Origin: Pseudomonadota bacterium
Lineage (GTDB): Bacteria; Pseudomonadota; Alphaproteobacteria; Sphingomonadales; SMXR01
Direction: 5' to 3'
NCBI GenBank assembly: GCA_022566215.1
Contig: JADFJJ010000001.1
Span: forward strand, 53,791-117,790
DNA: 64,000 bases
The notes beneath the pieces were generated by a model that worked only from the letters and a program-made list of their open reading frames with translations, was not told the origin of the DNA and did no database searches. This document shows, piece after piece, positions 496 to 37,956 of the stretch (positions are counted from its first letter, which is position 1; every line of letters starts with the position of its first letter). A program made the position numbers and the translations under genes.

Positions 496-594
496 GTTGT
501 CTCCAGACATTACCACGGGACATCTTAAGGGCTATTGTTTTTTTGCCAAACTAAGGGCAGGCTTCTGGAAAACGGCGAATGAAGGGTCTGCGAC

Positions 595-2762: not shown

Positions 2763-2810
2763 GCTTTAACGATTTTGGAGGACTGAAAAGAAAAAAAGAA
2801 GGGCCGGCCT

Positions 2811-3350
2811 TTAATTCAGTACCCAAATCTCCCCGTTCAGGATGGTCGCAAATGAAACCCAGAGAGCATATGGATAAAGAAGATAGGATGCCATCTGGTC
2901 AATACGGCGAAAGGCGTAAATCGTTCCAATTATAGCGAACAGCATAAGAATGATGACCATAAAGGAAAGGCCAATGTCACGAATCCTGAAAAAAACAAAA
3001 GGCCAGGCGGCGTTGAGGGCAAGTTGGATAAAAAAGAGCGAGAAAACTCTCTTTTGTTCGGAGATTCTAACCATCATCCACAGCCGCCAGCCGGAAAACG
3101 CCATAGTTGTGTAAAGCAATGTCCACACCGGGCGGAACAATTGGCCATCCGGGGTAAAAACGGGCTTGACCAAATCATTGTACCAGCCCATCAGGCTTGG
3201 CGCTGATGCAATATCGCCTGCCACCGAAGCACTGTAGCAGAGTAGCAGCCACCCGGTCAGTCCCAACCAGAGGTTTTCCCGGCCCTTCATTGGTTTGACC
3301 TCAGATTGGGAAGGTACACTCCTTTGCAATTTGTTGGTCCGTGCTTCCAT
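2811..3350 (-). CDS. tspO: TspO/MBR tryptophan-rich sensory protein
   Basis: 179 aa with five hydrophobic helices. Trp-rich motifs: WYNDLVKPVFTPDGQLFRPVWTLLYTTMAFSGWRLW and LALNAAWPFVFF. The start may be the internal ATG at 3290. Confidence 0.85.
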   Translation of the reverse strand: MEARTNKLQRSVPSQSEVKPMKGRENLWLGLTGWLLLCYSASVAGDIASAPSLMGWYNDLVKPVFTPDGQLFRPVWTLLYTTMAFSGWRLWMMVRISEQKRVFSLFFIQLALNAAWPFVFFRIRDIGLSFMVIILMLFAIIGTIYAFRRIDQMASYLLYPYALWVSFATILNGEIWVLN

Positions 3351-3527
3351 AGTTTTTAGTTCCTCAACGTGTACTTTTCTACCAAAAGGATCTTTTAAAA
3401 TATAGCTTAAGTTTAATTTTCTGAAAAATAGGGGTCAGAATAGTGATGTGCGTCCCACAGGCGTTCTGTGATAACTAGGGTTTTCCGTAAAAGTCTTTGC
3501 AAGTTTTGGTCGTGAAAGGCGCCAGCT

Positions 3528-4793
3528 ATGAAAGAAGAAGCCCGAGTCCAGTATCTTTTTCTGGATATGAACAGTTATTTTGCAAGCGTTGAGCAGCAGG
3601 AAAACCCAAGCCTGTTAGGTCGTCCTGTGGCAGTGGTTCCAATCCTGACCGAAAAGACCTGTGCCATCGCCGCCAGCTACGAGGCCAAGGCCTTCGGCAT
3701 TAAAACCGGCACCATGATTTACGAGGCGAAAAAACTCTGCCCTGATCTGATCATCGTTCCAGCCCGCCATGATGTCTATGTGGAGTATCATCACGCCATT
3801 ATGGAGGAGCTGGAGCGCCATTTGCCGATTGAGACCATCCATTCGGTTGACGAGGCTGTGTGCCGCCTGATCGGTGATGAGTGTCGGCCCGAGCGCGCCA
3901 TCCGCCTGGCACAGGAAATCAAGGCCGGGATATCCAGAAATATCGGGCCCGCGATCAAATGTTCCATCGGTCTTTCGGTCAATACCTATCTGGCGAAGCT
4001 GGCAACCGAGCTGGAAAAACCGGACGGCCTTTTGGTGTTGCATCTGAACCAGTTGCCGGAGCGTATCCTGCACATGAGGTTGTCGGCCCTTCCCTGGATC
4101 GGGCGGCGGATTGAGCGGCGGCTTCAGGCCACCGGCGTTCGTGATGTGGCAACACTGTGGTCTCTCTCTCCCGGACGGCTCAGGCGCATCTGGGGCAGCG
4201 TTATGGGACAGCGCTTTTGGTACATGCTGCACGGAATACAGGTGCCGCCAATCGAGACAAAAAAGCACATGGTCGGACATAGTCATGTTCTGGCCCCGCC
4301 GCTGCGTCTTCCGGAACGGGCGCATCTTGTCGCACGCCGGCTGATAACCAAGGCCGCCAGCCGCATGCGGCGCATGGGGTATTGGTCAACAGAGACGGGG
4401 GTTTCGGTGCGCTTTGTCGGTGGTAACCGCTGGAGGAAATATGCTCCAACCCAAAGCACCCAGGACTCTTTCACCTTGTTGCGCGCACTTGATCGCATGT
4501 GGAAAGAGATGCAAATAATTTACGGCCCGCAATATATCAAACAGGTTTCAATTGTTCTCTCGCGGCTGTCCAATCAGCCGGATTTATGCCCGGATCTTTT
4601 TAGCCGGCTGCCGACAACGGAAGACCGGGCACATTCAAGACGTATTTCACTTTCCCGGGCGCTGGACGGTCTGAACAGGCGCTATGGCCGGGACACCGTC
4701 ACCTTCGGCATACAGCCGCCAGTAAAGGCAAACTACATCGGCGCCAAAATCGCCTTCACCCGCATACCGGAGCGGGAAGAATTCCGTGAATAA
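3528..4793 (+). CDS. Y-family DNA polymerase (DinB/UmuC-like)
   Basis: 421 aa. The N-terminal catalytic motif is YLFLDMNSYFASVEQQENPSLLGRPVAVVP, followed by SVDEAV acidic residues. This is the IMS family pattern. Confidence 0.8.
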   Translation: MKEEARVQYLFLDMNSYFASVEQQENPSLLGRPVAVVPILTEKTCAIAASYEAKAFGIKTGTMIYEAKKLCPDLIIVPARHDVYVEYHHAIMEELERHLPIETIHSVDEAVCRLIGDECRPERAIRLAQEIKAGISRNIGPAIKCSIGLSVNTYLAKLATELEKPDGLLVLHLNQLPERILHMRLSALPWIGRRIERRLQATGVRDVATLWSLSPGRLRRIWGSVMGQRFWYMLHGIQVPPIETKKHMVGHSHVLAPPLRLPERAHLVARRLITKAASRMRRMGYWSTETGVSVRFVGGNRWRKYAPTQSTQDSFTLLRALDRMWKEMQIIYGPQYIKQVSIVLSRLSNQPDLCPDLFSRLPTTEDRAHSRRISLSRALDGLNRRYGRDTVTFGIQPPVKANYIGAKIAFTRIPEREEFRE

Positions 4794-4862
4794 AAACTCT
4801 AAGGCTGGCTGTTTACCCGCTTCTTGGTTAATGTGGGGGAAGGTCTGCAGGAAAGGTGATCC

Positions 4863-5996
4863 ATGACTGCTGTAAAACCCGAAATAGGACTGTCCGGAAG
4901 CGCCGGGAAGATGGCCCTCTCTTTAACTGGGGACTGGTTCATCAGCAATGCGCCGCGAATGGATAAATGTCTGAAAAGCACCCCAAGCCCGGCAGGGAAA
5001 GATGTCACTATAGATGCCTCCGCGATAACCGCCTTTGATACCTTTGGGGCCTGGCTGATTTTCCGCCTTTTAAAACAAATGGAAGCCGGGGCAAAAAGTG
5101 TTTCGGTCATAAAACTGAACCCGCAGCTCCAGCGTCTGGTCAAAAGTATGTCGGCACATGATGTGTCACCACCGGCAAAACCAATCGAGGTCGGATTTGT
5201 TGAAAAACGACTCAAGGCTTTAGGTTGGCTGACCGCTGCTATGTGTTCGCATTACGGGCAACTTTTTGCCTTTATCGGCTTTGTTCTGGTCCGTTCTATT
5301 AAAGCGCTGCGGCACCCGAAGCAGTTTCGTTTGACCTCACTGGTTTTTCACTTGGAAGAGGTTGGCTTTAACGCACTTTTTATCGTTGGCTTGGTGTCAT
5401 TTTTAATCGGGGCGGTTATTGTTAACCAGGGGGCTATCCAACTCAGACAGTTCGGGGCGGAAATTTTTACCGTCGACCTTTTGGCCATATCTCACCTGCG
5501 TGAGATGGGTGTTCTGCTGACAGCTATTTTGATCGCCGGACGCTCGGGCAGCGCCTTTACCGCTGAAATTGGCTCAATGAAAATCAGGGAAGAGGTAGAT
5601 GCCCTACAGGTCATCGGCCTGAACCCCGTTGATGTTCTGGTTCTGCCGCGCTTGATGGCGCTCATTTTTATTATGCCCATTCTGACCTTTTTCGCTGATC
5701 TGATGGGAATCCTGGGCGGGGCTTTAATGGCTTGGAATATGCTCGATCTATCCTTCGAGGCTTTTTTCACCCGTTTCCGCGATGCTACCCTGATGACCAC
5801 ATTTTATATTGGCATGATCAAGGCGCCGTTTTTCGGAGCGATCATCGCCATTAATGGATGTTATGAGGGTTTAAGCGTTACCGGCAGTGCTGAAAACGTC
5901 GGCCAACACACAACCCGGTCAGTGGTCCAGTCAATCTTCATGGTGATTGTCCTTGATGCCTTGTTCGCCATGTTCTTTACGGCTGTGGACTGGTGA
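4863..5996 (+). CDS. MlaE-family ABC permease with an N-terminal STAS-like extension
   Basis: 377 aa. The C-terminal ~250 aa are polytopic with MlaE-like motifs (REMGVLLTAILIAGRSGSAFTAEIGSMKIREEVDAL). The soluble N-terminal ~110 aa looks STAS/MlaB-like. Confidence 0.8.
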   Translation: MTAVKPEIGLSGSAGKMALSLTGDWFISNAPRMDKCLKSTPSPAGKDVTIDASAITAFDTFGAWLIFRLLKQMEAGAKSVSVIKLNPQLQRLVKSMSAHDVSPPAKPIEVGFVEKRLKALGWLTAAMCSHYGQLFAFIGFVLVRSIKALRHPKQFRLTSLVFHLEEVGFNALFIVGLVSFLIGAVIVNQGAIQLRQFGAEIFTVDLLAISHLREMGVLLTAILIAGRSGSAFTAEIGSMKIREEVDALQVIGLNPVDVLVLPRLMALIFIMPILTFFADLMGILGGALMAWNMLDLSFEAFFTRFRDATLMTTFYIGMIKAPFFGAIIAINGCYEGLSVTGSAENVGQHTTRSVVQSIFMVIVLDALFAMFFTAVDW

Positions 5997-6000
5997 TAAA

Positions 6001-6771
6001 ATGAAATCTGTAGCCAACAATATTGCAATTCGCATCAGGGGTCTGATGACGGGCTTCGACGACCACATTGTCCACAACAATCTGGACCTGGACGTTTACA
6101 AGGGTGAGATTTTGGGCGTAGTAGGCGGCTCCGGCTCTGGCAAGTCGGTTTTGCTGAAAGCGATTATTGGCCTGATAGTACCGCGCGCCGGAACGATAGA
6201 GGTTCTGGATCAGGATATGTCAAAAATTTCCTTGGAAAAACAGGGAGAATTTGGTAGCCGCTGGGGGGTTTTGTTCCAGGACGGTGCGCTTTTTTCATCG
6301 CTTACGGTGGGTGAAAATATTCAAGTGCCGATACGCGAAAATATGAAACTATCCCGGGAAATTATGGATGAGGTAACGTTTCTCAAGCTGTCCTTCGTGG
6401 GGTTAAAACCAGAAGTGGCGTTTAAATATCCGTCAGACCTGTCCGGGGGTATGCGAAAACGGGCGGGCCTTGCCCGGGCTCTTGTCCTTGATCCGGAATT
6501 GCTGTTCCTGGATGAACCGACCGCCGGTCTTGACCCTATAGGCGCCGCCCGTTTTGATGCCCTGATTAGGGAATTGAAAGAGGCTTTGGGCCTGACGGTC
6601 TTTCTTGTTACCCATGACCTGGATACCCTTCATGCGGTTTGTGACCGGGTCGCAGTGCTGTATGATGGCAGAATAGTTGTTGCAGGGCCCCTAAAGGATG
6701 TGAAAAGATTTGACCATCCCTGGGTGCAGGACTATTTCAACGGCCCACGGGGCAGGGTTTTGGCGGATTAA
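6001..6771 (+). CDS. ABC transporter ATP-binding protein (MlaF-like)
   Basis: Walker A is GGSGSGKS, the ABC signature is LSGGMRKR, and Walker B is LLFLDEPTAGLD. I chose the ATG at 6001, just after the permease stop at 5996. The track ORF begins at 5947, inside the permease. Confidence 0.9.
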   Translation: MKSVANNIAIRIRGLMTGFDDHIVHNNLDLDVYKGEILGVVGGSGSGKSVLLKAIIGLIVPRAGTIEVLDQDMSKISLEKQGEFGSRWGVLFQDGALFSSLTVGENIQVPIRENMKLSREIMDEVTFLKLSFVGLKPEVAFKYPSDLSGGMRKRAGLARALVLDPELLFLDEPTAGLDPIGAARFDALIRELKEALGLTVFLVTHDLDTLHAVCDRVAVLYDGRIVVAGPLKDVKRFDHPWVQDYFNGPRGRVLAD

Positions 6772-6795: not shown

Positions 6796-7701
6796 GTGGA
6801 AAACAAAGCAAATTATCATTTGATCGGCGCGTTTATGATCATTTCCCTGATCTCTCTTTTTGCTTTTCTGATCTGGATTGCCAAAATAGATTTTGACCAA
6901 GAATACAAAGAATTTGATATCTACTTTTCGGAATCCGTATTTGGCCTGACCAAAGCCAGCCAGGTAACCTACAACGGCATACCAGTCGGCGATATCCGCA
7001 ACATTACGATTGCCAAGGATGATCCCAGCAAGGTGATGGTCCGGATCAGAATCAAGGAAGAAATTCCCATTCTCCAAGATACTATGGCCACGCTTGGCAT
7101 GCAGGGCATAACAGGGGTTTTGTTCGTTCAGATCATCGGCGGCCAGCCGGGCAGCCTCCCACTGGTTTCCAAGGAAGGACAGGAACGTCCTGTAATCCCG
7201 TCACGGCCCTCTACACTGGAAGAGTTTTTTGGTGGTGGTGGCGACCTGATCAACCGGGCCATGCAGACCTTTGAGCGCCTGAACCTTTTGTTCAGCACCG
7301 AAAATATTGAGAGTTTCACGCAAACCCTGAACAATATCGAAAGCCTGTCCGGAGATCTGGCCGAAGAAGGGGAAACCATCCAGCAGACCCTGCAAGGCCT
7401 GCGTGATACCATCAAAACCGCTGAACGCCTATTTCAACAGGATATCAAACCGGCGGCAGAAGAGTTTCGACAGCTCTCCCAAAAGGCTAACCAGCTGGTA
7501 AACAATCTGGATCAACTGGTTGCGGAAAACCGGGAAAATATTTCCAGGTTTACCGGGGCCACAATGTCGGAACTTAACCTTCTGATCAGTGACATGAGAG
7601 AATTATCACAAGCTATAACGGCCCTGGCGGAACGCTTGGAGGAAAACCCTTCCGATATCATAATCACCAGACCTGAGCCGGAATACGAAGTGGAGAAATA
7701 A
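6796..7701 (+). CDS. MlaD/MCE-domain substrate-binding protein
   Basis: 301 aa. An N-terminal TM anchor is followed by an MCE-like beta region (VTYNGIPVGDIRNITI...) and a coiled-coil C-terminus. GTG start with a GGGAG upstream. Confidence 0.8.
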   Translation: MENKANYHLIGAFMIISLISLFAFLIWIAKIDFDQEYKEFDIYFSESVFGLTKASQVTYNGIPVGDIRNITIAKDDPSKVMVRIRIKEEIPILQDTMATLGMQGITGVLFVQIIGGQPGSLPLVSKEGQERPVIPSRPSTLEEFFGGGGDLINRAMQTFERLNLLFSTENIESFTQTLNNIESLSGDLAEEGETIQQTLQGLRDTIKTAERLFQQDIKPAAEEFRQLSQKANQLVNNLDQLVAENRENISRFTGATMSELNLLISDMRELSQAITALAERLEENPSDIIITRPEPEYEVEK

Positions 7702-13988: not shown

Positions 13989-15590
13989 TCAGGAAACCAT
14001 TACCGGGCGTTGCTCAAATAAAGCCCGGAACGCCAAAAGCGTTTTAAGGGCTTCCCCGGTTTCACCCCTGCTGACTTGGTTCCGCATCTGAGAGATCAGG
14101 TTTTTAAATGAAGAAAACCCCGGCATCGCTATCCGCCCGGAATTTTCATTCAGGCTGAGCCGGCGTGAAAGTAACATAAATTCGGCGTCGAACATGACTT
14201 CCATTCGGGCCTGAAGATTACCCGCCAAATGGTCAAATTCTTCCAGGTCCTGTTCCTTTGCCAACATCTGGACCATGCGTTCCATAAGCGCTTGTACGCC
14301 TTGTTCTTCAAAGGAACCGTTATCCTCCAGCCGGAGAGCTGTTTGCCATAAGTATCTGGAAACCTCTTCAAAATCTTCCGGGGTTTCCGCCGAACGAAGT
14401 TTCCAGTAGGCGGACCTGAGCGCCAGATAAATTCCGGTATTGTATTGAAAAGCAGCTTTTTCATTGGTCAGGGTATTCAGGCGCTGGATCTGGGCGCCTT
14501 TCCGGCCCGGTGTAATGAGCAGGGCTTTCCGGATAGAGACCAGTGTTTGCGCTACCGGGTTCTGAAAGGATTCTTCAGGGAGCAGAAGGGTTACAGGTTC
14601 ACCGGCGCTGATTTGACCCAAACCATCCACGGCCTTGATAACAGCTCTAACGGTGGTCCCCGCCCAAGGGTGGCTTAATAGGTTGGTGTGATAAGTCAGG
14701 GTCGTTTGGTCATCAGGGGCTGCAAGCACCGGAAGAAAAATTATTTTAGTCTCGGTACCTGTTATTCCCCGGCGGCTCAGTTCCAGAAAAACCTCTTCCA
14801 CACCGTGATCATCCCAAAGAGTATATTTTAATTCATAGGATTTTCTTTTGGTCAGGATGGGCTTGGCAACCAATGCCACCCTGGGGGCCTCATCCGGAAT
14901 GACCTCGAAAGCTTGCCGTATGGAAACATATGGACCGACCCTGATATCCAGCGTCGTTTCTTCATTCAGGATATGCTTCGAAAGATAAACACCCTTGCTG
15001 GTTTTGTAACTTTGGCCAAGAGAATTTCCGAGCGAAATAAAAGGTGAAAAATCTTCGGTGTTTTTAATCTCAATCGTCAGGATACTTCCTTCCGGTAGGA
15101 AAATAATGTCATTTCCATCGTAACGGCCATAAGGTCCATCCTTCTCAGACAAAAGGAGGACTTCCTGCTGATTCAAATAAGATGGGGGAGTAATGGTCAG
15201 GTTCAGCAAAACTTCCGTCGGCGGTTGCTTCAGGGAAAAAGTCATGGCCTGAAGGATGCGGCCCGGAATTCCAGACCCTGTATAGGAAACCCCAAGAATC
15301 AGTCCTCCAAGCACAGCGAAAGAAAGGGCGTGTAACCTCCACGCCGGTTGTAGGTCCAACAATTTAACCTCAGCCGGACTTTGGTAATGTTTAAGCCTAC
15401 TGTAAGCCCGGAGGTTCTTGCGAGTATTCCAATAGACGGCGCCAAGGCAGCCCACCAGGGCAATATTCTTTAACCAGTAGGGCAGGTAAGCCCAAACCTC
15501 GAATAGGGAAGCAGAAACATATGCCCCAAAAATCACCAGCGCATACTGAACAATCCTAAAGAGCGTTTTCGTTTTCGACATTTGCCGCAA
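13989..15590 (-). CDS. membrane protein, DUF4175/TIGR02302-like
   Basis: 533 aa with N-terminal TM helices, an ITPPSY motif and a helical C-terminus. It resembles the alphaproteobacterial DUF4175 family as I remember it, but is shorter than I recall for that family. Confidence 0.45.
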   Translation of the reverse strand: MRQMSKTKTLFRIVQYALVIFGAYVSASLFEVWAYLPYWLKNIALVGCLGAVYWNTRKNLRAYSRLKHYQSPAEVKLLDLQPAWRLHALSFAVLGGLILGVSYTGSGIPGRILQAMTFSLKQPPTEVLLNLTITPPSYLNQQEVLLLSEKDGPYGRYDGNDIIFLPEGSILTIEIKNTEDFSPFISLGNSLGQSYKTSKGVYLSKHILNEETTLDIRVGPYVSIRQAFEVIPDEAPRVALVAKPILTKRKSYELKYTLWDDHGVEEVFLELSRRGITGTETKIIFLPVLAAPDDQTTLTYHTNLLSHPWAGTTVRAVIKAVDGLGQISAGEPVTLLLPEESFQNPVAQTLVSIRKALLITPGRKGAQIQRLNTLTNEKAAFQYNTGIYLALRSAYWKLRSAETPEDFEEVSRYLWQTALRLEDNGSFEEQGVQALMERMVQMLAKEQDLEEFDHLAGNLQARMEVMFDAEFMLLSRRLSLNENSGRIAMPGFSSFKNLISQMRNQVSRGETGEALKTLLAFRALFEQRPVMVS

Positions 15591-15592
15591 AT

Positions 15593-15730
15593 TTAATTCT
15601 CCACAGCTTGAATTAGGACAATGGCCGTGTCTTTATATTTATCCGGGGCTTCCAATTCCCCTTTTTTGCCGCAGGCGCCAAGGCCAAGAGCGAAAAGCAA
15701 AAGAAAAGTAGTCAAGGTAGCTGTTTTCAT
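15593..15730 (-). CDS. small lipoprotein (45 aa), LptM/YifL-like
   Basis: Not in the ORF track. My own translation is MKTATLTTFLLLFALGLGACGKKGELEAPDKYKDTAIVLIQAVEN. It has a signal peptide, an LGAC lipobox and a CGKKG-type start of the mature protein. Its stop is 2 nt before the ATG (15590) of the next gene. Confidence 0.55.
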   Translation of the reverse strand: MKTATLTTFLLLFALGLGACGKKGELEAPDKYKDTAIVLIQAVEN

Positions 15731-15857
15731 ATCCAGTCCTCAAAATTACTGTTGGAAATGCTCTCTTAATCTACATTTGTCCCAAAGGTCAAATCAAGCC
15801 AACAAAATGTGAGATTGAAGCGGTGGAAAAAAAAATGCAAACCCACTAAAAGAAGGC

Positions 15858-16427
15858 ATGAAAAAAATACTTCCCATCCTGATCATCGCCACAGCAGCCA
15901 GCGGGTGGTTTTTGTTCCTGCTTTACCAGGATTGGACCTCCCTGGCCCACTTGGAGCACGAGACTCGGGGAGCTATGTCTGAGTTCATTATCTTTGACAG
16001 AAAAAAAGACATGCCCCAAACCCCGGTTTTTGACCGGGATGGAAATACTCTCAGTTTTAAGGATTTCAAGGGCACGGCACTTCTGGTTAATTTATGGGCG
16101 ACCTGGTGCGAGCCGTGCCGTGAGGAAATGCCGACCCTTTTGGATTTACAAAAAGTAATGAAAGGGGAAAATTTCCGGGTTCTTACAATTTCCATTGACT
16201 GGCAAGGATATCAGGTCATTGACCCGTTTCTGGAAGAATATCAGGTTGCTGACCTGACTGTTTACTGGGATAAATCAAACCGGCTTCCAAATCAGCTGGC
16301 TGTCAAGGGATTGCCATTGACGATTTTGATTAACAAGGACGGAGACTGGGTCGGCCGCTTTGATGGCCCTGCGGAATGGAACAGCGTTGACGCCATCCGC
16401 TTAATGCGGGCTGCGGCAAGGGAATAA
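15858..16427 (+). CDS. TlpA-family periplasmic thiol:disulfide oxidoreductase
   Basis: 189 aa with an N-terminal TM anchor and a thioredoxin CxxC site (WATWCEPCREEMP). Confidence 0.85.
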   Translation: MKKILPILIIATAASGWFLFLLYQDWTSLAHLEHETRGAMSEFIIFDRKKDMPQTPVFDRDGNTLSFKDFKGTALLVNLWATWCEPCREEMPTLLDLQKVMKGENFRVLTISIDWQGYQVIDPFLEEYQVADLTVYWDKSNRLPNQLAVKGLPLTILINKDGDWVGRFDGPAEWNSVDAIRLMRAAARE

Positions 16428-21558: not shown

Positions 21559-22128
21559 ATGCTGATCAGGAATTTAGAAACAGCGTCGCCTGAGGCCTTT
21601 CCGGCCCTGGTCCTGAATGCCGATTATCGACCCTTGAGTTATTTTCCGCTGTCCCTGTGGGGATGGCAAACCTCGGTCAAGGCGGTTTTTCTTGACCGGG
21701 TCAATATCGTTTCCGAATACGAAAAAGTCATTCATTCACCCTCCACAGAGTTTCGTCTGCCGTCGGTCCTTTGCCTGAAAAAATACATCAGGCCCACGCG
21801 CTGGCCGGCTTTTACCCGGTTTAATCTGTTTCTGAGAGATGGCTTTACCTGTCAGTATTGTCATGACGGAGAGGAATTGACGTTTGATCACCTGGTTCCT
21901 CGTTCCAAGGGCGGGCGCACCACCTGGGACAATGTCACTACTGCATGTATGCCCTGCAATTTGAAAAAAGGAGGGCGTTTGCCTAATGAATCACATATGT
22001 GGCCGGCAATCAGGCCTTACAAACCGTCTACCCAGAAGCTGATCCAGATGGGTAGGAAATTCCCGCCTAATTTCCTGCATGAAAGCTGGCGCGACTATCT
22101 TTATTGGGATGTCGAACTGGAGGCTTAG
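21559..22128 (+). CDS. HNH endonuclease
   Basis: 189 aa with the motif CQYCHDGEELTFDHLVPRSKGGRTTWDNVTTACMPCNLKKG. Confidence 0.8.
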   Translation: MLIRNLETASPEAFPALVLNADYRPLSYFPLSLWGWQTSVKAVFLDRVNIVSEYEKVIHSPSTEFRLPSVLCLKKYIRPTRWPAFTRFNLFLRDGFTCQYCHDGEELTFDHLVPRSKGGRTTWDNVTTACMPCNLKKGGRLPNESHMWPAIRPYKPSTQKLIQMGRKFPPNFLHESWRDYLYWDVELEA

Positions 22129-23931: not shown

Positions 23932-24018
23932 GCCCCCGTGGCGGAATTGGTAGACGCGCCAGACTCAAAATCTGGTGGCCTTCGGGCCGTGTCTGTTCGA
24001 GTCAGACCGGGGGCACCA
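23932..24018 (+). tRNA. tRNA-Leu (anticodon CAA), class II with a long variable arm, encoded CCA
   Basis: Hand-folded. The acceptor stem is GCCCCCG/CGGGGGC. The anticodon arm is CCAGA-CTCAAAA-TCTGG. The variable arm is TGGCCTTCGGGCCGTG. The T arm is GTCTG-TTCGAGT-CAGAC. It ends in ACCA. Confidence 0.9.
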
Positions 24019-30121: not shown

Positions 30122-31936
30122 TTAATTGCCTAGGGTGGTTTTAACAAGACCCCTTACAGAATTGGCAAGATAGATATTTTTTGCATTCACCAGATCTTCA
30201 AAAGTTAGAGAGGTTTCTTTTGCCCTTCCGGATTCTAAAAGTTTTGCTCTGTATATCCCGGGCAACAAGCCAGCGCTTATAGGGGGCGTTAACAGTTTGG
30301 GGTCATTCTTTTCAATGAAAATATTATTGAATGTCCCCTCGGTAATCTCATTTTTTTCATTTTGGAAGATTACGTCATAAATTTTTTCAGCTTCAGCATT
30401 TTTTGTTATCGCCTCATTGTATATGGGACGGTAAGTGGTTTTGTGGAACAGGAATATATCGTTACTGCTTACTTTATTTTTACTGAGGTGGATGATTGGG
30501 GGCTGAGTTTTGTTTGTTTTTAACAATGTTTCGTGGGTCAATATATAATGACCTCTCCTGTCCAGAACCAGGCGGACTTTATGACCGGCAGAAATGATGA
30601 TTGTACCCGCCAGATTTCTCAACGAATCCCTGATTTTATCAATCGGACACACAAAATTAAAATAAGCGGCGGATTGGACAAGACGCTCAAGATGATCTTC
30701 CAGATAACTAAACCCCTTTTCTTTGGACCAGAGCATGGTCTCCACCAGGGCGAAGTTTGCCGGTGTATTATACAGAAAACGGGATTTCAACAAACATTCC
30801 CTGTATTCCATCCTAACTGTGCTGTCGGCAACTATCCCGCTTCCAATTCCAAGCCACCCCTTCCCCTTGGCGTCCATAACCGCGGTGCGAATTGGAACAT
30901 TAAAGGAAAAATCCCCGTCTGGGGCCAGAAAGCCAATGGCCCCGGTGTAGATACCCCTTGGCCCTTTTTCGGTTTCATGAATGATTTCCATCGCCCGGAC
31001 CTTAGGCGCCCCGGTAATAGAACCACAGGGAAAAAGAGCTTTGTAAATATCTCCGAAACTTGTTTCTTCTCTTAATTCTCCCGTCACTTCGGATGACATC
31101 TGCAGGACCGAGGCAAAGCTCTCCACCTCGAACAGTTTGTTTACCTTTACCGTTCCAGGTTTACAGATCCTGCTGAAATCATTGCGTATCAAATCGGCAA
31201 TCATCAGGTTTTCGGCCCGGTTTTTTTCATCCCGCTCCAGAACTTCCATGCGGCGCTGGTTTTCCTCCAGAGTTTTGCCGGGTTTTGCCGTTCCCTTCAT
31301 GGGTCTGGATATAAGACGACCATTTCGCCTGGTTATAAACAGTTCAGGAGATAGAGAGAGGACGCGCCACTCCCCGGTTTCGATGAGGGCGCTGAAAGGG
31401 GTTGGTTGAGCCCTTCTTAAATTGCCATAAAGGGCCTTCGCCGCCCCTGTACTTTTAAGACCGAGGCGAAAAGTATGGTTGATCTGATAAACATCACCTT
31501 TGGAAATATAATCCTGTATTTTACTGAAAATACTTTCAAACTCTTTAGAGGTTTCATTCGGGTCAGCACTTTTTGAAAATCCCCATGTATTATTTTGGCC
31601 TTCGGATTCAGTGAACAGATTTTCCAGAGAAGAAGCGGACAAGACCTCAGGTTTTTTAAAAACACCCATCCAGATCAACGGCTCGTTGCTCAAGACCGTT
31701 TTTTTCCTTTTCAGGGTAGGATGAAAAGGAAGTGCGCATTCATAGGACAACCAGCCGGCAAGGAAATTACCCTTAGTTAGGAAAGTTTCTATTTCAACAA
31801 GGGTGGCCAGGACACCTTCCAGACTAACGCATTCCAGAACCTCAATCGGATTCTGGAACAACAGCCCGGCATCGGGCCGGTTGCTTGATTTGCTGTCTTC
31901 CAGCAAAACATAAGGAGATTTGGGGAATTCTGGCAT
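30122..31936 (-). CDS. pabB: fused aminodeoxychorismate synthase component I / aminodeoxychorismate lyase (PabB-PabC)
   Basis: 604 aa. The N-terminal ~400 aa form a chorismate-binding domain (SPELFI..., PCGSITGAPK, GIYTGAIGF). The C-terminal ~200 aa have a class-IV aminotransferase fold (FHKTTYRPIY, GLLPGIYR). Confidence 0.85.
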   Translation of the reverse strand: MPEFPKSPYVLLEDSKSSNRPDAGLLFQNPIEVLECVSLEGVLATLVEIETFLTKGNFLAGWLSYECALPFHPTLKRKKTVLSNEPLIWMGVFKKPEVLSASSLENLFTESEGQNNTWGFSKSADPNETSKEFESIFSKIQDYISKGDVYQINHTFRLGLKSTGAAKALYGNLRRAQPTPFSALIETGEWRVLSLSPELFITRRNGRLISRPMKGTAKPGKTLEENQRRMEVLERDEKNRAENLMIADLIRNDFSRICKPGTVKVNKLFEVESFASVLQMSSEVTGELREETSFGDIYKALFPCGSITGAPKVRAMEIIHETEKGPRGIYTGAIGFLAPDGDFSFNVPIRTAVMDAKGKGWLGIGSGIVADSTVRMEYRECLLKSRFLYNTPANFALVETMLWSKEKGFSYLEDHLERLVQSAAYFNFVCPIDKIRDSLRNLAGTIIISAGHKVRLVLDRRGHYILTHETLLKTNKTQPPIIHLSKNKVSSNDIFLFHKTTYRPIYNEAITKNAEAEKIYDVIFQNEKNEITEGTFNNIFIEKNDPKLLTPPISAGLLPGIYRAKLLESGRAKETSLTFEDLVNAKNIYLANSVRGLVKTTLGN

Positions 31937-31962: not shown

Positions 31963-32532
31963 TTAAACCTCGAAAGTCCGAACTAGGGTTACAACCGGTG
32001 CGGCAAATATGACCTTGCAGTCTTTTGCCAGTGTACCGGCTTTGCCGATTGGAAACAGGGTATAGGTATTTTTCCTTGAACCGTTGACAAGTTTTGCAAA
32101 ACAGCGTTCACCGCCTTCCAGTTCAATCAGGCAATCATGGCCAACGGCCTTTTCAACAGCTTGTGCTGATTGACCCTCACAGATGACCGAATCTCCCTGC
32201 CGGTATTCCCCCATGTTGGCTTTTATTTTCAGGGCTATTGGCTTGGTCCCCATCAGGCGTAAGGAGACAGTCCCGAAATTAATGGGTGAAACAGAACCCA
32301 TCCTGCCCACTTCTCCCAAAATTTCTATATCACCGTACTCTGGTAAGATTAAAAGCATTGAAGACTCTACCACAAGGGCCTTGGCGATACGGTTGACCCA
32401 ATTCAGGGAAAGCGTCCGCATCCCGGTTTCCAGCCGTCCGATGGTCTGGGCGGTGGTTCCGCACCGCCCGGCAACTTGTTGTAAAGTCAGGCCTTTTTGC
32501 CTCCTGATTTCCCTGATGCGTGAATGGACCAT
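31963..32532 (-). CDS. XRE-family HTH regulator with a CI/LexA-like C-terminal beta domain lacking the obvious Ser nucleophile motif
   Basis: The HTH is IREIRRQKGLTLQQVAGRCGTTAQTIGRLETGMRTLSLNWVNRIAKAL, from the ATG at 32532 with a GGAAGGGGG upstream. I see no GDSM-type motif in the C-terminal domain. Confidence 0.75.
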   Translation of the reverse strand: MVHSRIREIRRQKGLTLQQVAGRCGTTAQTIGRLETGMRTLSLNWVNRIAKALVVESSMLLILPEYGDIEILGEVGRMGSVSPINFGTVSLRLMGTKPIALKIKANMGEYRQGDSVICEGQSAQAVEKAVGHDCLIELEGGERCFAKLVNGSRKNTYTLFPIGKAGTLAKDCKVIFAAPVVTLVRTFEV

Positions 32533-32603
32533 GGCGAGCCCCCTTCCTGTGGGGTCAGGATAACACAAAAATGTTCCAAAACAAAAAATAAATTTACCTC
32601 TTT

Positions 32604-32644
32604 GGTTATTTATGATATAACCTTTCCGGTTAATAACGGGTTAA
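32604..32644. promoter_or_regulatory. candidate operator region: GGTTAT-N7-ATAACC inverted repeat, further GGTTA half-sites, and one exact TTAA-N7-TTAA (CtrA-type) word
   Basis: Read directly from the sequence. GGTTAT is at 32604..32609 and ATAACC at 32617..32622. GGTTA recurs at 32628 and 32639. TTAAtaacgggTTAA spans 32630..32644. All lie in the 125-bp divergent intergenic region. Confidence 0.3.
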
Positions 32645-32657
32645 GGAGAGTTGTACC

Positions 32658-33419
32658 GTGAAAGAGGTGTGTGTTTCTTCGTTCGGACTAAGGATACTGC
32701 AAAAAATGGACCCCGGCAATAATGCCCGGCTATTGCCAAACGGCGGCTTGCGGGTCGGCAGCATAGAGGCCCCTCGCTCTCTGGTGAAGGATCTGGCCAG
32801 ACGGGATTTTATTACATTTCCCGCCAACGGCAGGGTCGCCCTGTCCGAAGCCGGCGCGATGTACTTGAGGCGCACCAAAACGGCCCGCAAATTCGCCCGC
32901 TCGGGAAAACTGCAGAGCGGCGGCAATATCTACCGGGCGCAGCACAGCTGTTTGAGAACAGAACAAATCAGGGCCGGACAGAAGCGTGAGAAAATGACCC
33001 GGAATATAGGGGAAACGCCGCTTGGCTGGCTGTTGCGGCGCAAGGACCGGGACGGCAAACCCTATATAACCGAGGATCAGTTTAATGCCGGCGAAAGGCT
33101 GGCGGCGGATTACGAATATGCCGGGCTGATGCCCCGCACGGTCAGCTACTATGACGGCGTGCCGGTCTCCGGTAAAAAATATTATTCCAGCGTCCGGGAC
33201 GATCCAAGCCTGACCCAGATGGCCGCCAAGCAAAGGGTAAACGCGGCCCTGGATTCCATCGGTCCCGGCCTGGCCGATGTTTTGATCCGGGTGTGCTGTT
33301 TTCATGAGGGGCTGGAACAGGCGGAGAAAAACCTGGCGTGGCCGACCCGGTCCGCCAAACTGGTCCTGAAAATTGCCCTGGAGCGTTTGGCGGATTATTA
33401 CCAGCCAGGTAAAAAATAA
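32658..33419 (+). CDS. DUF6456-like putative DNA-binding protein
   Basis: 253 aa with a GTG start preceded by AAGGAGA. The C-terminal half (NIGETPLGWLLRRKDRDGKPYITEDQFNAGERL...VCCFHEGLEQAEKNLAWPTRSAKLVLKIALERLADYY) matches my recollection of the alphaproteobacterial DUF6456 family. Not verified. Confidence 0.55.
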   Translation: MKEVCVSSFGLRILQKMDPGNNARLLPNGGLRVGSIEAPRSLVKDLARRDFITFPANGRVALSEAGAMYLRRTKTARKFARSGKLQSGGNIYRAQHSCLRTEQIRAGQKREKMTRNIGETPLGWLLRRKDRDGKPYITEDQFNAGERLAADYEYAGLMPRTVSYYDGVPVSGKKYYSSVRDDPSLTQMAAKQRVNAALDSIGPGLADVLIRVCCFHEGLEQAEKNLAWPTRSAKLVLKIALERLADYYQPGKK

Positions 33420-33438
33420 CCAAATAGGTAAAAATTGG

Positions 33439-33467
33439 TTGACAGCGTCGCGCTCTTTTGGTACAAC
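33439..33467 (+). promoter_or_regulatory. candidate sigma70-type promoter upstream of the TerS-like gene
   Basis: TTGACA (33439..33444), a 17-nt spacer, then TACAAC (33462..33467). It lies about 95 nt upstream of the ATG at 33561. Confidence 0.3.
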
Positions 33468-33560
33468 AATAACAAGCTTCCAAAAGGCCCGGAACACAAA
33501 CCCGGGCCTGATACTTTCCGGATAAAAAACCAGACATTATTCACACAATATTTCCCACCC

Positions 33561-34019
33561 ATGCCCCGAAAACAAAGATGGTCAAGGGAGGTGCGCGAGA
33601 CCTTTTTTAAGGTTCTGAAGGCCACCGGAAACGTCAGCGCGGCGGCCCGGGGCGCCGGGGTTTCTCTTCACAACGCCTATTTAAAAAAGACCTCCGAAGT
33701 AAAATTTTCCCGTGAATGGGAAGCCGCCATTGAAGAAGCGCTGGATGACCTGGAGGGAGAGTTACGGCGCCGCGCCCTGGAGGGAACAGAAAAAGCGGTC
33801 TATTACGCCGGCAAGGAAATCGGCTCAATCACGTCCTACAATGACAACCTGGCAATGTTTTTGCTGAAATCCCGGCGCGGCCATATCTATGGCGAAGTGG
33901 ACCTGATGGGTTATAAAGGCTCTGGTAAAAAGAACTTTGACAGCCCCCGTGAAAAGCTGCTCGCCAAATTAAAAAATATGAAATCCAAAGCCGGCCCAAC
34001 CCCTGGAAACAAAAAATAA
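33561..34019 (+). CDS. terminase small-subunit-like HTH protein
   Basis: 152 aa from the ATG at 33561: MPRKQRWSREVRETFFKVLKATGNVSAAARGAGVSLHNAYLKK...FSREWEAAIEEALDDLEGELRRRALEG...YNDNLAMFLLKSRR. It has the phage TerS-like pattern and sits directly before TerL. Confidence 0.6.
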   Translation: MPRKQRWSREVRETFFKVLKATGNVSAAARGAGVSLHNAYLKKTSEVKFSREWEAAIEEALDDLEGELRRRALEGTEKAVYYAGKEIGSITSYNDNLAMFLLKSRRGHIYGEVDLMGYKGSGKKNFDSPREKLLAKLKNMKSKAGPTPGNKK

Positions 34020-34034
34020 GGCTGGCCGGATCCC

Positions 34035-35381
34035 GTGTTGTCTTTTGTCAAACAAGGAGGGATCAAATCCCCGGCCGAGAAACTGCTGGGGCTCGATGAT
34101 CAAAACTTCAGTGAATTTTTCAAGGATCTGGGGAACCAGGAATGCCAGTCACTTTGGTACGACTGGAAATTCTGGGCCCGGCCCAACCAACTGGCGCCGG
34201 GCGGCGACTGGTTCTGCTGGCTGGTTCTGGCCAGCCGGGGCTTTGGCAAAACCCGGATGGGAGCGGAGTGGGTCCGTTGGCACGTCGAGGGGACAACGCC
34301 TCTTAGCGCCCCCCCGGGAGGGTTGGAGCGGATAGCCCTTGTTTCCCAAACACTGGCCGACGGCCGGGACGTGATGGTCGAGGGCGAAAGCGGTATTCTG
34401 GCAATATCCCCGCCGGATTTCCGTCCCCATTATGAATCAGCCCGGCGCCGCCTGATATGGCCGAATGGCGCCCAGGCGGCCCTTTATTCATCGGAAGAGC
34501 CCGACCAGCTTCGCGGCCCCCAGCACCATCTGGCCTGGGGGGACGAATTGGCGAAATGGCGCCATCAAAGAACCTGCTGGGCCAATCTTCTTCTGGGCCT
34601 GAGATTGGGGGAGGCACCAAAGGTCATGGCCACCACCACGCCCAAGCCAACCCCTTTGATCAAACAATTGAGGGATGACCCGACCGTGGCCATAACCCAT
34701 GGCGCGACCTTTGATAACCGGGCCCATCTTTCCGGCGATTTTATTTATCATATCAAGCGCCTCTACGAGGGCACCCGGCTGGGCCGTCAGGAACTTTACG
34801 GTGAAATCCTGGAGGATTTTCCGGGGGCTCTGTGGAACCGGGACGGGATTGATGACACAAGGGTTAAAAAAGCCCCGCCATTGACAAGAATTGTTGTCGC
34901 CGTAGACCCGCCAGTCACCCATGGAGAGAACGCCGATGCCTGTGGCATCGTGGTCGCCGGCATATCCAGTGAGGGCCATACCTATGTCCTGGCCGACCTG
35001 ACGGCCCAGGGCCTGAGCCCCCATCAGTGGTGTAAAAAAGCGCTTTTGGCTTATGAGACTTTTGAGGCCGACCGGCTGGTGGCCGAGATCAACCAGGGCG
35101 GCGACCTGGTGGAAACCCTGATCCGGCAAATCTCGCCCGGGGTCAGCTACCGGGGCGTGAGGGCCAGCCGCGGCAAAATCGCCCGGGCCGAACCGGTCGC
35201 CGCCCTTTATGAACGGGGCCTGGTTCACCATGTCGGCGGATTGAACCAGCTGGAAGACCAGCTGTGCAGCTATACCGGCGAAAAAGGCGAGAAAAGTCCC
35301 GACCGTCTGGACGCGCTGGTCTGGGCTATCACCGACCTGGCGCTGGGAAACCATTTCAGCCCGCGAATTCGGAGCCTTTAG
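34035..35381 (+). CDS. terminase large subunit, GTA/HK97-type
   Basis: 448 aa. The N-terminal region is WKFWARPNQLAPGGDWFCWLVLASRGFGKTRMGAEWVRW, including the Walker A. The C-terminal nuclease region includes IVVAVDPPVTHGENADACGIVVAG and the end motif DRLDALVWAITDL. Confidence 0.85.
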   Translation: MLSFVKQGGIKSPAEKLLGLDDQNFSEFFKDLGNQECQSLWYDWKFWARPNQLAPGGDWFCWLVLASRGFGKTRMGAEWVRWHVEGTTPLSAPPGGLERIALVSQTLADGRDVMVEGESGILAISPPDFRPHYESARRRLIWPNGAQAALYSSEEPDQLRGPQHHLAWGDELAKWRHQRTCWANLLLGLRLGEAPKVMATTTPKPTPLIKQLRDDPTVAITHGATFDNRAHLSGDFIYHIKRLYEGTRLGRQELYGEILEDFPGALWNRDGIDDTRVKKAPPLTRIVVAVDPPVTHGENADACGIVVAGISSEGHTYVLADLTAQGLSPHQWCKKALLAYETFEADRLVAEINQGGDLVETLIRQISPGVSYRGVRASRGKIARAEPVAALYERGLVHHVGGLNQLEDQLCSYTGEKGEKSPDRLDALVWAITDLALGNHFSPRIRSL

Positions 35382-35734
35382 GACCTGGAGTTGAAAATCG
35401 CGATTTGCTCGTTAAGTGAGCTTTCCAGATCAGTCAGGTGATCGGCCAGGGTATTGAAATCCTCGGCCCAGCGTTCGCGCTGGTCCTCGGTCATATTCAG
35501 GAAAAAGTTTTCCTTATTCAACTGCAAGCAGCCGGTAAAAGCCTGGACTTCAAAACCATAATCCTGGACCGCCCGGATGGCGATGCCAATTTCCTCATTG
35601 GTGGCGGTTACGCCATCAGGGATAACCGGCCCGTCCCCGGGCATCATGCCGCAATCCTTGGCCAGGGCGCCGGGGGGTTGGGAGGCAAGTAAAACGCCTG
35701 TCAGGGCGATTGCAATCAGGGCAGGGGCGCGCAT
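35378..35734 (-). CDS. secreted hypothetical protein (118 aa)
   Basis: The signal peptide is MRAPALIAIALTGVLLASQPPGALA. The mature part is helical with two Cys. It lies antisense between TerL and the portal, and its stop overlaps the TerL stop by 4 nt. Confidence 0.6.
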   Translation of the reverse strand: MRAPALIAIALTGVLLASQPPGALAKDCGMMPGDGPVIPDGVTATNEEIGIAIRAVQDYGFEVQAFTGCLQLNKENFFLNMTEDQRERWAEDFNTLADHLTDLESSLNEQIAIFNSRS

Positions 35735-35861
35735 TTTTTAACCTTCAGTTTTGACCATTTGAATTTTCTTTAACCTATTTTCCTTGCCAAGGCCAGCCGT
35801 TCTGAACGGCCTGGGGCATTTCCATCACTATTTTGCAATTACCGCAAAAAGGAGAAACTTT

Positions 35862-36959
35862 ATGAATAACTGGGGCCAGAAGGTCAGCCAGTGGATCGGT
35901 CTTGGCCTGAACAAAAAGAGCAGCGCCGTCGGAAGCCTGATCAGCGGCGCCTCAAAGGCCGCCTTCATAAGTTTCGCCGCTCCGCGCTGGACCGGCCGCA
36001 CCTATGAACAGCTGGTCCGCGAAGGCTACCGCAAAAACGTCGTGGTTCACCGCTGTGTCCGCATTATTGCCGAAAGCGCGGCCTCGGTGCCGTTTCTTCT
36101 TTACCGCGGCGACAAAAGGCTTGCAGGCCATCCCATCCTGGACCTGCTGGCCCGGCCCAACCCGCTGCAATCGGGCAAGGAGCTGATGGCCAGCTATTAC
36201 GCTTTCCTCGAGATCGCCGGAAATGCCTATATGGAAGTGGCGGAGGGGGCCGACGGCAAGGCCGGCGAGCTTTATGTACTGCGCCCAGAGCGGATGCGGA
36301 TCATCCCCGGGGCCAAAGGCTGGCCAGCCGGCTATACCTACAAGGTAGGCGGCAAAAGCCATACCTTCAAGGTCGAACCGCGCACCGGCAAATCGCCGAT
36401 CATGCATCTCCGCACCTTTCACCCGGAGGATGACTATTACGGGCTGTCCCCGCTGGAGGCGGCGGCTTTTGCCATTGATATCCACAATTCCTCGCAAAAC
36501 TGGAACAAGGCTTTATTGGATAATTCCGCCCGGCCATCGGGGGCCCTGGTGTTCGAGCCCTCCGAGGGCGCGCCGGGCCACCTGAGCGACGAACAGTTCA
36601 AGCGCCTCAAGGAAGAGCTGGAAGAAAACTACCAGGGGGCGGTCAACGCCGGGCGGCCATTCTTGCTGGAAGGCGGCCTGAAATGGCACCTGAGTGCTTC
36701 AATTTGTGACGAAAAGGGCAGGGCAATTCCCAGGGAAGATGGGAAATATTGTATTCTGCCCCACACCATTACAATTCAGGTTACGGATCTGAACGTTAAT
36801 GATCATACAATTAAAGGGGGACTGGAAGATATTCTCAAATCTCTCATCGAGCAGACTGTGAACTGGCATAAAACATTGGCCAGTATGGATATTTTATTAA
36901 CTGACTGGAAAAATTCCAGTCTCAGTGCACCACCCAAAAAAGAATCTAAAAAAAATTAG
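35862..36959 (+). pseudogene. HK97/GTA-type portal protein, C-terminally truncated and fused to unrelated AT-rich sequence
   Basis: The ATG at 35862 has an AGGAGA upstream. Portal-like sequence (VVHRCVRIIAESAASVPFLLY, NPLQSG, AGNAYMEV, GRPFLLEGGLKW) runs to about 36,700. After that come ~85 codons of low-GC sequence that I do not recognise as portal. Confidence 0.7.
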
Positions 36960-37576
36960 TGTTTTGTTTCTGATTTTTTTTGAGTGTCTTCGGCAGACTT
37001 TTCACCTTTCGTAGCCCCTTCTGGCTGATCAGCAGCTTCATGATGATCCGGGAACATTTGGCGATGAACCGTAAGCACCCTTGAATAAATTTCAGAAATG
37101 GCATCGGCAATAGCCTGCATTTTATACCCGTCCCCGCGGTAATAAAACGTCATGGTGGTCGGGTCATAAAGCCTGAATATATTTCCCTCCACAATCGGAA
37201 TCTGTTTGCTCAATTCTTCAAGCGAGCCAACGTGATCAAAGACCACTTTCTCACCTTTGGAAGCTCCAATCCAATCCTCAAGTTTCTCATCTCCATGTTC
37301 CCATAGCGCTGACAGCCGTGGGTCATTCAACGGATGTTTTTCACTCAGTTGCAGAACGTCTCTCAGTTCCTCCCCCCGCTTTTGTACTCTGGTCCGGGAT
37401 GGCCATAACAATGACGAGACCTGACTGGCGCAAAGCAGTGTTGACTGGGCGGCAAAAAATATACCTGCTGGAATGTTTTGCTGTACCGACTGGTTGAAAA
37501 CCCGAAAAGCAGCTTCGGTATAAACACACTGGTTGTGAAGTTCGTGAATAAAGATGGCTAATGATGCGCGATCCAT
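36956..37576 (-). CDS. orphan hypothetical protein (~206 aa)
   Basis: It sits in the AT-rich segment. The ATG at 37576 (MDRASLAIFIHELHNQ...) has an AAGGGA upstream, whereas the track start at 37660 lacks an RBS. It has a helical N-terminus and an acidic/lysine tail. I recognise no family. Confidence 0.5.
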   Translation of the reverse strand: MDRASLAIFIHELHNQCVYTEAAFRVFNQSVQQNIPAGIFFAAQSTLLCASQVSSLLWPSRTRVQKRGEELRDVLQLSEKHPLNDPRLSALWEHGDEKLEDWIGASKGEKVVFDHVGSLEELSKQIPIVEGNIFRLYDPTTMTFYYRGDGYKMQAIADAISEIYSRVLTVHRQMFPDHHEAADQPEGATKGEKSAEDTQKKSETKH

Positions 37577-37956
37577 TTTGAAATCCCTTTTATAATCCTT
37601 AGTAGAGAGTCCTGAAAAATCGGCGAAGTGATAGCACAGGCTCGTGCTTTTTGGCCACATAAACTTTGCTTAAAAGTCATAATAAGTGTCAAAAACCAGA
37701 ATAAAACAGAATCTTCCGCAAATTGGCCTTAATTTGAGGAAAATTATTACATTAAATACAAGTTCAATATCTGGATGAGGGCGTTATGAAACTTTTATCG
37801 GCAAGACCCCGTAAGAAAAAAGCCTGCGAAATCTATGAGAGAACATTTATAATTATTTGCTTGGCCAACGCAAAAAACACCCTTGATCAGGCAGAGAGAT
37901 AGGTTGGGTTTGCCAGGTATATAATCGCCAGTATTTTTGAAATTTAAAATCTTAAA

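Follow-up and report, generated by a model that had tools for sequence, protein, structure and literature searches.

The 64,000-nt stretch of contig JADFJJ010000001.1 (assembly GCA_022566215.1) analyzed here, which we refer to as the window, carries a GC-rich block of genes that homology and gene order identify as the 5' end of an RcGTA-type gene transfer agent (GTA) cluster, cut off within its portal gene. Comparison with related loci (numbered with the prefix L) indicates that this stump has been inherited vertically and is held by selection as tightly as housekeeping genes and the portals of intact GTAs. A first-pass annotation of the same DNA had described a decayed head-packaging module. 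That description does not suit a module that sits at the same site across deep divergence, whose synonymous divergence equals that of its housekeeping neighbors and whose ratio of nonsynonymous to synonymous divergence (dN/dS, or omega) is equally low. On balance, the truncated cluster is probably still used and not dead.

The terminase and portal genes set the identity of the block. The open reading frames (ORFs) that the first-pass annotation assigned to TerS, TerL and the portal lie where it placed them and contain the peptides that it quoted. Its comparison with g2 and g3 of the HK97/RcGTA type agrees with the Terminase_6N and Terminase_6C domains of TerL and with the portal, whose closest solved relative is the RcGTA portal Rcc01684 (6TBA/6TE8; E 3e-70, residues 19–276 of the query against 22–271 of the 396-residue chain). 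TerL keeps its full set of ATPase and nuclease motifs (Walker A and B, the TTT coupling motif and three acidic motifs of the nuclease), and it shares 47% identity with the TerL of a Rhodobacterales locus and 59% with that of L010, a more distant relative with RcGTA gene order. TerS matches phrog_4044 (E 3e-24), with orthologs called at 142–148 aa in the relatives, and no similarity to Rhodobacterales g1 was found by BLAST. The order regulator-gafA-terS-terL-(antisense gene)-portal also heads intact clusters. In L007, the closest of the genome-collection relatives listed, it continues with a portal-MuF-lysozyme fusion (793 aa, 3892–6273), an S78 protease and an HK97 capsid, and in L010 with an HK97 protease, capsid, gp8-type connector, gp10 and a TP901-1 tail protein, which is the RcGTA order. 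The left flank of L010 is partly like that of the window, with DUF3450/ExbB homologs about 3 kb upstream of its helix-turn-helix (HTH) gene; a 691-aa ORF without an NCBIfam match (14218–16293) lies between its capsid and head-tail connector genes.

The portal breaks off sharply. The first-pass annotation had placed the break near 36.70 kb, at about codon 280, and had proposed alignment to a full-length homolog to fix it; this alignment ends at residue 271 of the 396 in the RcGTA portal. The exact site lies between nt 36,688 and 36,689 (...CTG AAA TGG CA / C CTG AGT), which corresponds to W275/H276 of the ATG-start protein (35862–36959, 365 aa) and to W301/H302 of the 391-codon ORF. Because the alignment stops there, about 125 C-terminal residues are missing, in keeping with the reported loss of the C-terminal third; the Pfam Phage_portal match is limited to profile positions 2–205 of 321, and the TIGR01537 match covers positions 4–219 of 343 (130 bits against a cut-off of 112). 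What follows in frame, noted earlier as some 85 foreign and AT-rich codons, amounts to 89 codons with a GC content of 40%, and GC at third codon positions drops from 0.76 to 0.40 exactly at the junction. A diverged portal C-terminus was rejected as the source of this tail, as profile-profile comparison with portal C-termini (hhalign) gave a probability of 0.1%. The tail is homologous to the ORF 3' of the tail-tip gene remnant in L002 and L089, and corresponds to the final 89 codons of the small gene that ends the cluster (124–134 aa when intact), distant homologs of which lie directly behind gpJ-class genes in the viral contigs L253 and L258. The GC enrichment that had been pointed out is equally well defined, at 57.3% for the block from 32,658 to 36,688 against 43.8 and 44.6% in its flanks and a window mean of 51.2%, and no other 4-kb stretch of the window matches it. 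The module had been given the right genes but too late a start, since the unit as a whole begins further left than the GC-rich block, at 31,963, and includes two regulator genes that were not listed.

Protease, capsid, connector and tail genes have no homolog anywhere in the 64 kb when all ORFs of six related clusters are used as tblastn queries, so the earlier remark that no protease, capsid or tail genes follow the portal holds for the window as a whole, and structural genes were not found in the 17- and 26-kb contigs of relatives either. No integrase, replication or lysis genes are encoded within 12 kb on the left side of the module, a search for long flanking repeats was negative, and the sole match of an Rfam search of the window was a tRNA-Leu(CAA) at 23932–24018 (+) without an adjacent integrase. 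These results bear on whether the block is a remnant of an ordinary temperate phage and not of a GTA, as the first-pass annotation had allowed, which we regard as very improbable. An N-terminal HTH-like segment in TerS (a weak match to HTH_Tnp_1 over residues 43–79 of the long ORF, E 0.075), the greater length of TerS compared with RcGTA gp1 (152 vs. 107 aa; PMC6854486) and the portal-MuF(-lysozyme) fusions of the nearest intact relatives (L005 and L006 also carry portal-MuF, and RcGTA is without the MuF domain) would suit a phage. However, neither an att site nor the phage genes named above were found nearby, and the block keeps a stable, syntenic chromosomal position across deep divergence. 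It also includes a GafA activator, its portal is closest among solved proteins to that of RcGTA, its GC content is enriched and not depleted, and none of the best 80 IMG/VR relatives lies on a phage-sized contig.

By sequence comparison, at least nine related assemblies carry the stump at this chromosomal site. Both flanks are shared by L087, L002 and L003, with pabB on the left (preceded in the window by TonB-ExbBD, DsbB and COQ7) and p234 followed by SCP2, DUF748, HAD, ribF and ileS on the right. L087 is 99.6% identical to the window at the nucleotide level. In the shorter contigs L001 (91% nucleotide identity), L091 (87.5%), L088 and L089 the right-flank gene p234 alone is visible, and the contig of L090 carries no flanking genes. 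The gene p234 is a 234-aa ORF (206 aa in PGAP) without a match in family searches, which overlaps the stop codon of the portal fusion by 4 nt; its ortholog lies immediately to the right of every truncated portal, that of the distant L096 included, and its dN/dS is 0.04–0.19 (0.04 for L002–L003). The 365-aa fusion protein has 14 cluster members, from at least five NCBI metagenome-assembled genomes (MAGs), in which it is deposited in identical form, and from ENA and Logan assemblies, the window's copy being MCH8080844.1 (locus-tag set IID52). Broader scans reached more distant loci. Among the matches listed from a genome-collection scan with at least 600 matches, the best was 64% identical and the window's own clade did not appear; a metagenome scan that matched 332 stretches gave a best match of 62% identity without recovering the clade (L096 and L097, which it did recover, are more distant); and the best 80 IMG/VR relatives are 48–59% identical, all on contigs of at most 23 kb.

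The strength of selection on the stump can be read from two sets of truncated loci. Between L002 and L003, compared over 14 syntenic genes, synonymous divergence (dS) is 0.69–1.05 in the module and 0.54–1.32 in host genes, and omega is 0.067 for TerL, 0.071 for the portal N-terminal fragment (portalN), 0.10 for gafA, 0.10 for the divergent regulator and 0.15 for terS, next to 0.079 for ribF and 0.12 for pabB among the host genes (all p < 1e-10 vs. neutrality). Between the window and L001 or L091, which have the same junction, omega of portalN is 0.043 and 0.069, respectively, at a dS of about 0.37, and omega of TerL is 0.052 at a dS of 0.21 (L001). For TerL the overall range is 0.05–0.07 (ATPase half 0.073, nuclease half 0.052), and the dN/dS check that had been suggested for this gene thus points to purifying selection; gafA ranges from 0.10 to 0.12 and terS from 0.15 to 0.24. 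The portal fragment has an omega of 0.04–0.07 overall and of 0.008–0.03 in its last 85 residues, the most constrained part, which comprise the stem helix and clip. The same 230 codons in intact GTA portals give a median omega of 0.09 over 214 pairs, and a dN/dS of 0.06–0.08 is reported for Rhodobacterales GTAs (PMC9254644). Of the sites conserved at 95% or more among 230 intact portals, the fragments retain 91–97%, and the two changes common to all fragments occur in the intact relatives L005 and L006 as well.

Because dS of the module equals that of the flanking genes, omega is equally low, the reading frames are open and the regulatory sites are conserved, the notion of a dead remnant is unsupported. 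A pseudogenized leftover that has not yet decayed would account for the truncated portal, the loss of all structural genes, the frameshift in the portal fragment of L087 and the almost neutral evolution of the appended tail, and small GTA clusters have often been seen as decaying (PMC5721377). Such a leftover is nevertheless improbable, as the five genes and the portal fragment have all stayed open over a dS from about 0.9 to more than 1.5, with an omega of 0.04–0.15 that is on par with housekeeping neighbors and intact GTA portals, and both the regulatory sites and nearly all of the invariant portal positions are kept.

Several observations nonetheless weigh against the view that the stump is maintained and used. 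Every sequence compared is a metagenome assembly. In L087 a 1-nt indel (~7250–7330) frameshifts the portal fragment (P0006, 282 aa). The tail appended to the fragment is almost unconstrained (24–37% nucleotide divergence from L091 with a near-neutral omega of 0.32), omega of the antisense gene p118 is near 1 in the closest pair, and a portal without its second stem helix, tunnel loop and crown is not expected, from structural considerations, to form a working channel. None of the top 120 capsid relatives is traceable to the window's MAG family, which is a weak test (0 of the 10 NCBI-sourced top matches in an accession trace for the GTA capsid carries an MCH76-83 accession). Two relatives with intact-type sequence are also relevant here. 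L004 matches the window at 97% identity over 4316 bp, a tract that ends exactly at the junction, and then continues for 24 nt as intact portal until its contig ends at 4677; L005, in the same clade, has an intact C-terminal sequence in a 2x long-read assembly with frameshifts. It follows that gene flow from intact alleles such as these could help to keep omega low.

In its strong form, this last point would mean that the low dN/dS is borrowed, the truncated alleles being overwritten by recombination with intact functional clusters of related strains. The intact-type continuations of L004 and L005 do nest among truncated alleles, and the 4.3-kb tract shared by L004 and the window stops where the junction lies. 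Against this, module dS equals the dS of flanking host genes in both L002–L003 and window–L001, which favors co-divergence over repeated import, and both continuations come from poor contigs (L004 is chimeric at its other end, and L005 has 2x coverage with duplications). Since module and flanks have equal dS, gene flow is unlikely to be the main cause of the low omega, and we consider the borrowing explanation a poor prospect overall. L005 was ruled out as a clean intact relative by its coverage, frameshifts and duplication, and it is used here solely to show that intact C-termini exist in the clade. At positions 1900–5450 it carries two copies of the portal C-terminus plus MuF (86% nucleotide identity) with an AT-rich hicA/hicB-like insert between them. 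L004 has, at 20–499 (-), an HTH regulator fused to a PaaI-like hotdog sequence in place of the usual C-terminal domain, which may be a chimera or a real variant. The intact L006 is about equidistant from both truncated subclades and may branch outside them.

The relatives also indicate how the stump arose. At the same nucleotide (..CTGAAATGGCA up to the junction), the portal N-terminus of L002 and L089 passes into about 145 codons starting H-AW(V/T)PA(N/T)DE.DIP, which align with the ..DAIYAW.. region of proteins whose viral relatives are last large tail-tip proteins. These relatives range from 769 to 1676 aa; the 1676-aa one carries Phage-tail_3 and Ig_J, the 769-aa one is encoded a few genes 3' of a tape-measure gene, and by homology they are of the RcGTA g15 class. 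An intact small gene of 124–134 aa follows the tail-tip fragment in these loci. The alignments trace this arrangement, which we call type A, to an old in-place deletion that begins at portal codon 276 and spares only the final ~145 codons of a gpJ/g15-class gene, and the window's form (type B) to a further deletion that starts at that nucleotide and reaches into the small gene. As the relatives join the portal in frame to the 3' end of the tail-tip gene, the g3'–g15' interior was deleted in place and not moved.

The left endpoints of all junction types fall within the same 3 nt, while the right endpoints vary. Microhomology is at most 1 nt in type A (L002, L089). In type B (window, L087, L001, L091) the portal is joined to codon ~48 of the small gene across 2–3 nt (GCA), and in the type B-like L090 the join lies 3–4 codons further in (2–3 nt, CACC). 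Type C (L003) is joined to small-gene codon ~70 (2–3 nt, CAT) and type D (L088) to the C-terminus of the small gene (GAAaTGGCA/GAAcTGGCA). Given that portalN is 90% identical between L002 and L003, type C arose from type A after the two had split. The portal is intact at the breakpoint position in about 230 other loci. In the distant L096 (334–1296), where portalN is 52% identical and the right flank has the same order p234-p182-SCP2, the cut lies 8–9 codons further on, and both P0063 and the contig of L004 likewise end 8–9 codons past the window's breakpoint; the later cut sites in the independent L096 and P0063 lineages read ..QSVGFSPI and ..QQMAFSPA. The loss may thus have happened more than once, and the nested deletions from one nucleotide offer a natural series for studying how GTA clusters are dismantled.

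Three candidate explanations for the re-use of the breakpoint can be put forward: selection may favor a fragment whose end falls in the linker behind the clip strand; intact-allele DNA, whose homology to a truncated recipient ends exactly at the junction, may have taken part in homology-facilitated illegitimate recombination; and, in singleton cases only, the assemblies may be chimeric at a highly conserved stretch. Restriction at the GCATGC of the type A junction was rejected (15 GCATGC sites vs. 11.6 expected and 227 CATG vs. 226, hence no avoidance), as was a junction hairpin acting as a deletion hot spot (folding z-scores from -1.2 to +0.7). As a separate observation, synonymous divergence in the ~250 nt before the junction is 1.5–3x higher than in the rest of portalN and terL. 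Against L001 and L091, dS at 36430–36690 is 0.72–0.76 compared with 0.23–0.27 elsewhere in these genes, and for L002–L003 it is 1.30 before the junction and 0.82–0.89 in the rest.

The in-place deletion also tells against a split but complete GTA, in which this locus gives the regulators and terminase, a full portal, capsid and tail are encoded elsewhere, and particles are still made. Multi-locus GTA systems under GafA/GafY control are known (PMC11150451; PMC5721377, discussion), both halves of TerL and the portal clip are constrained as a packaging motor would need, and the GC signature is that of large clusters. The missing genes were, on the other hand, deleted in place as the type A fusion indicates, they are absent from the window and from the relatives' contigs searched above, a capsid from the window's MAG family is not among the top matches, and a second full portal would make the fragment redundant. 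We judge this arrangement unlikely, though less so than a dead remnant.

The regulatory genes and their sites form a second line of evidence for continued use of the truncated cluster. The product of one of the two unlisted genes matches PF20057 (DUF6456; E 2e-48), an annotation given to homologs of GafA, the direct activator of RcGTA (PMC9638019, PMC9765227), and its position is shared by L002, L003, L006, L007 and L010. PGAP labels this homolog a 'DNA replication protein' (MCH8080840.1), which may mislead GTA surveys based on annotation. The other, divergent gene encodes an XRE-type HTH protein (Pfam HTH_31/HTH_3) whose C-terminal domain found no match in Pfam and PDB searches, with full-length orthologs in the truncated loci L002 and L003 and in the intact clusters L006, L007 and L010. 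It is RogA-like in architecture and in its position beside gafA, and its size (189 aa vs. 213 aa for RogA) and divergent orientation fit the RogA family (PMC9632790). Members of that family are LexA-like repressors of GTA activators, with an N-terminal HTH and an S24-like C-terminal domain that lacks catalytic residues, and RogA itself represses gafYZ in Caulobacter.

The palindrome TWACC-N5-GGTWA has five strict matches in the 64 kb where about 0.24 would be expected by our own estimate (shuffles that allowed up to 2 mismatches averaged 0.51), and four of them form the two pairs listed in Table 1. The fifth, at 8203, falls within coding sequence and could be a chance match. The pair between the repressor gene and gafA is kept in L002, L003 and L004, with related sites in L007, and the arrangement of sites and promoter 5' of terS is kept in L002, L003, L004, L006, L007 and L010, so that truncated and intact relatives conserve palindromes and promoter alike. 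From this conservation we infer that the palindromes and the terS promoter are regulatory elements, and their placement may parallel the binding of GafY to its own promoter and to the cluster promoter (PMC11150451). A generic scan for promoters and terminators was uninformative. The conserved promoter also bears on the terS gene, which had been correctly recognized but started at a TTG at 33435. Because the promoter sits inside that longer ORF, the start is most likely the ATG at 33561.

Within the portal fragment, the AlphaFold2 model of the fusion is confident for the wing alone, with LEGGL as the last strand and a pLDDT below 50 in the tail, so that the tail is modeled as disordered or with low confidence. 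In tailed phages, the terminase docks on the clip. The antisense gene p118, which lies between terL and the portal gene, had no match in family searches. All clade members have it at this position, as do the intact relatives L005, L006, L007, L008 and L097; its dN/dS is 0.07 for L002–L003 and about 0.35–1.0 in the closest pairs.

If the truncated cluster is still used, it most likely works as an operon that remains under regulation, with the repressor keeping gafA silent. When repression is relieved, GafA would act at the TWACC-N5-GGTWA sites that precede gafA and the terS promoter, and the cell would then make a complete TerS/TerL ATPase-nuclease motor together with a clip-bearing portal fragment that could not form a normal channel alone. 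What such a motor might act on can be suggested only with reserve. A tentative proposal is an exapted role on DNA or on incoming related phages, as packaging interference or regulated cleavage. Somewhat more doubtful is that the module acts on heads supplied from elsewhere, by unlinked GTA genes or a resident phage. In the same tentative spirit, the GafA/RogA-controlled terminase and portal fragment may be a stand-alone cellular device that was kept after all structural genes were lost. If this were so, the portal wing-stem-clip and TerL would function without a capsid of their own, for example by poisoning or misdirecting the packaging of related phages or GTAs or by cleaving DNA, and the narrow clustering of breakpoints after the clip strand would reflect selection for a cut at a domain boundary.

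The features of the block are collected in Table 1. Outside it, an HNH endonuclease gene (189 aa; PF01844, PF14279) lies among housekeeping genes at 21559–22128 (+), 12 kb left of the module.

Table 1. Genes and putative regulatory elements of the truncated GTA cluster and its borders (window positions).
Feature	Position	Strand	Remarks
pabB, left border	30122-31936	-	housekeeping gene
RogA-like repressor gene	31963..32532	-	HTH_31/HTH_3 + ~120-aa C-terminal domain; divergent from gafA
Two operator-like palindromes TWACC-N5-GGTWA	32594-32608, 32618-32632	.	divergent repressor/gafA promoter region
GafA-family activator gene (DUF6456), 253 aa	32658..33419	+	PF20057, E 2e-48
Two TWACC-N5-GGTWA sites	33398-33412, 33417-33431	+	just 5' of terS promoter
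Candidate terS promoter	-35 TTGACA 33439-33444, 17-nt spacer, -10 TACAAC 33462-33467	+	conserved in relatives
terS (g1 position), 152 aa	33561..34019	+	phrog_4044, E 3e-24
terL (g2), 448 aa, full length	34035..35381	+	Terminase_6N + Terminase_6C
p118, signal-peptide protein, antisense between terL and portal gene	35378..35734	-	no match in family searches
Portal (g3) N-terminal 275 residues: N-terminal arm, wing, first stem helix, clip	35862..36688	+	6TBA/6TE8, E 3e-70
In-frame tail, final 89 codons of the small gene that ends the cluster	36689..36959	+	homology to L002/L089 ORF
p234, right border gene	36956..37660	-	ortholog adjoins every truncated portal

The system to which the block is closest is RcGTA itself. 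The two share a portal N-terminus (aligned over Rcc01684 residues 22–271, E 3e-70), a TerL of the Terminase_6 type and a GafA (DUF6456) activator, and the elevation of GC above the host background and the dN/dS, which lies in the range reported for Rhodobacterales, are as in RcGTA. The differences are that the window retains only g1, g2 and two thirds of g3, with g3.5 to g15 absent; that gafA lies directly upstream of g1, where in RcGTA it lies elsewhere in the genome; that TerS has a greater length and no detectable similarity to Rhodobacterales g1; and that an antisense gene stands between g2 and g3.

In its regulation the block recalls the RogA/GafY/GafZ system of Caulobacter crescentus (PMC9632790, PMC11150451), where an HTH repressor of LexA/cI-like layout likewise lies beside a GafA-family gene, and the presence of the same motif at the regulator and cluster promoters here would parallel the binding of GafY to both promoters. 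Unlike the split GafY and GafZ of Caulobacter, which serve as activator and anti-terminator, the window encodes one GafA-like protein of 253 aa, and its regulators are physically attached to the cluster.

Reduced GTA gene sets that are under purifying selection too, with a function that is not established, have been described in Rickettsiales and Holosporaceae endosymbionts (PMC9254644). Those sets keep the full portal, capsid and protease and lose the tails, whereas the window keeps the regulators, the terminase and a portal fragment only, and so carries this precedent of reduced but selected gene sets much further. In Alphaproteobacteria, incomplete GTA clusters are frequent, and they are usually dismissed as debris or as miscalled prophages; the window gives a testable case of a terminase and portal fragment without a capsid. 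With three RcGTA homologs, the block would count as one of the 'small clusters' of fewer than nine genes (Shakya et al. 2017, PMC5721377). On average, small clusters have a host-like GC content and evolve faster than large clusters (PMC5721377), whereas the block in the window combines a raised GC content (about +12% relative to the window mean) with the slow evolution of large clusters, which shows that gene counts alone are a poor guide to function.

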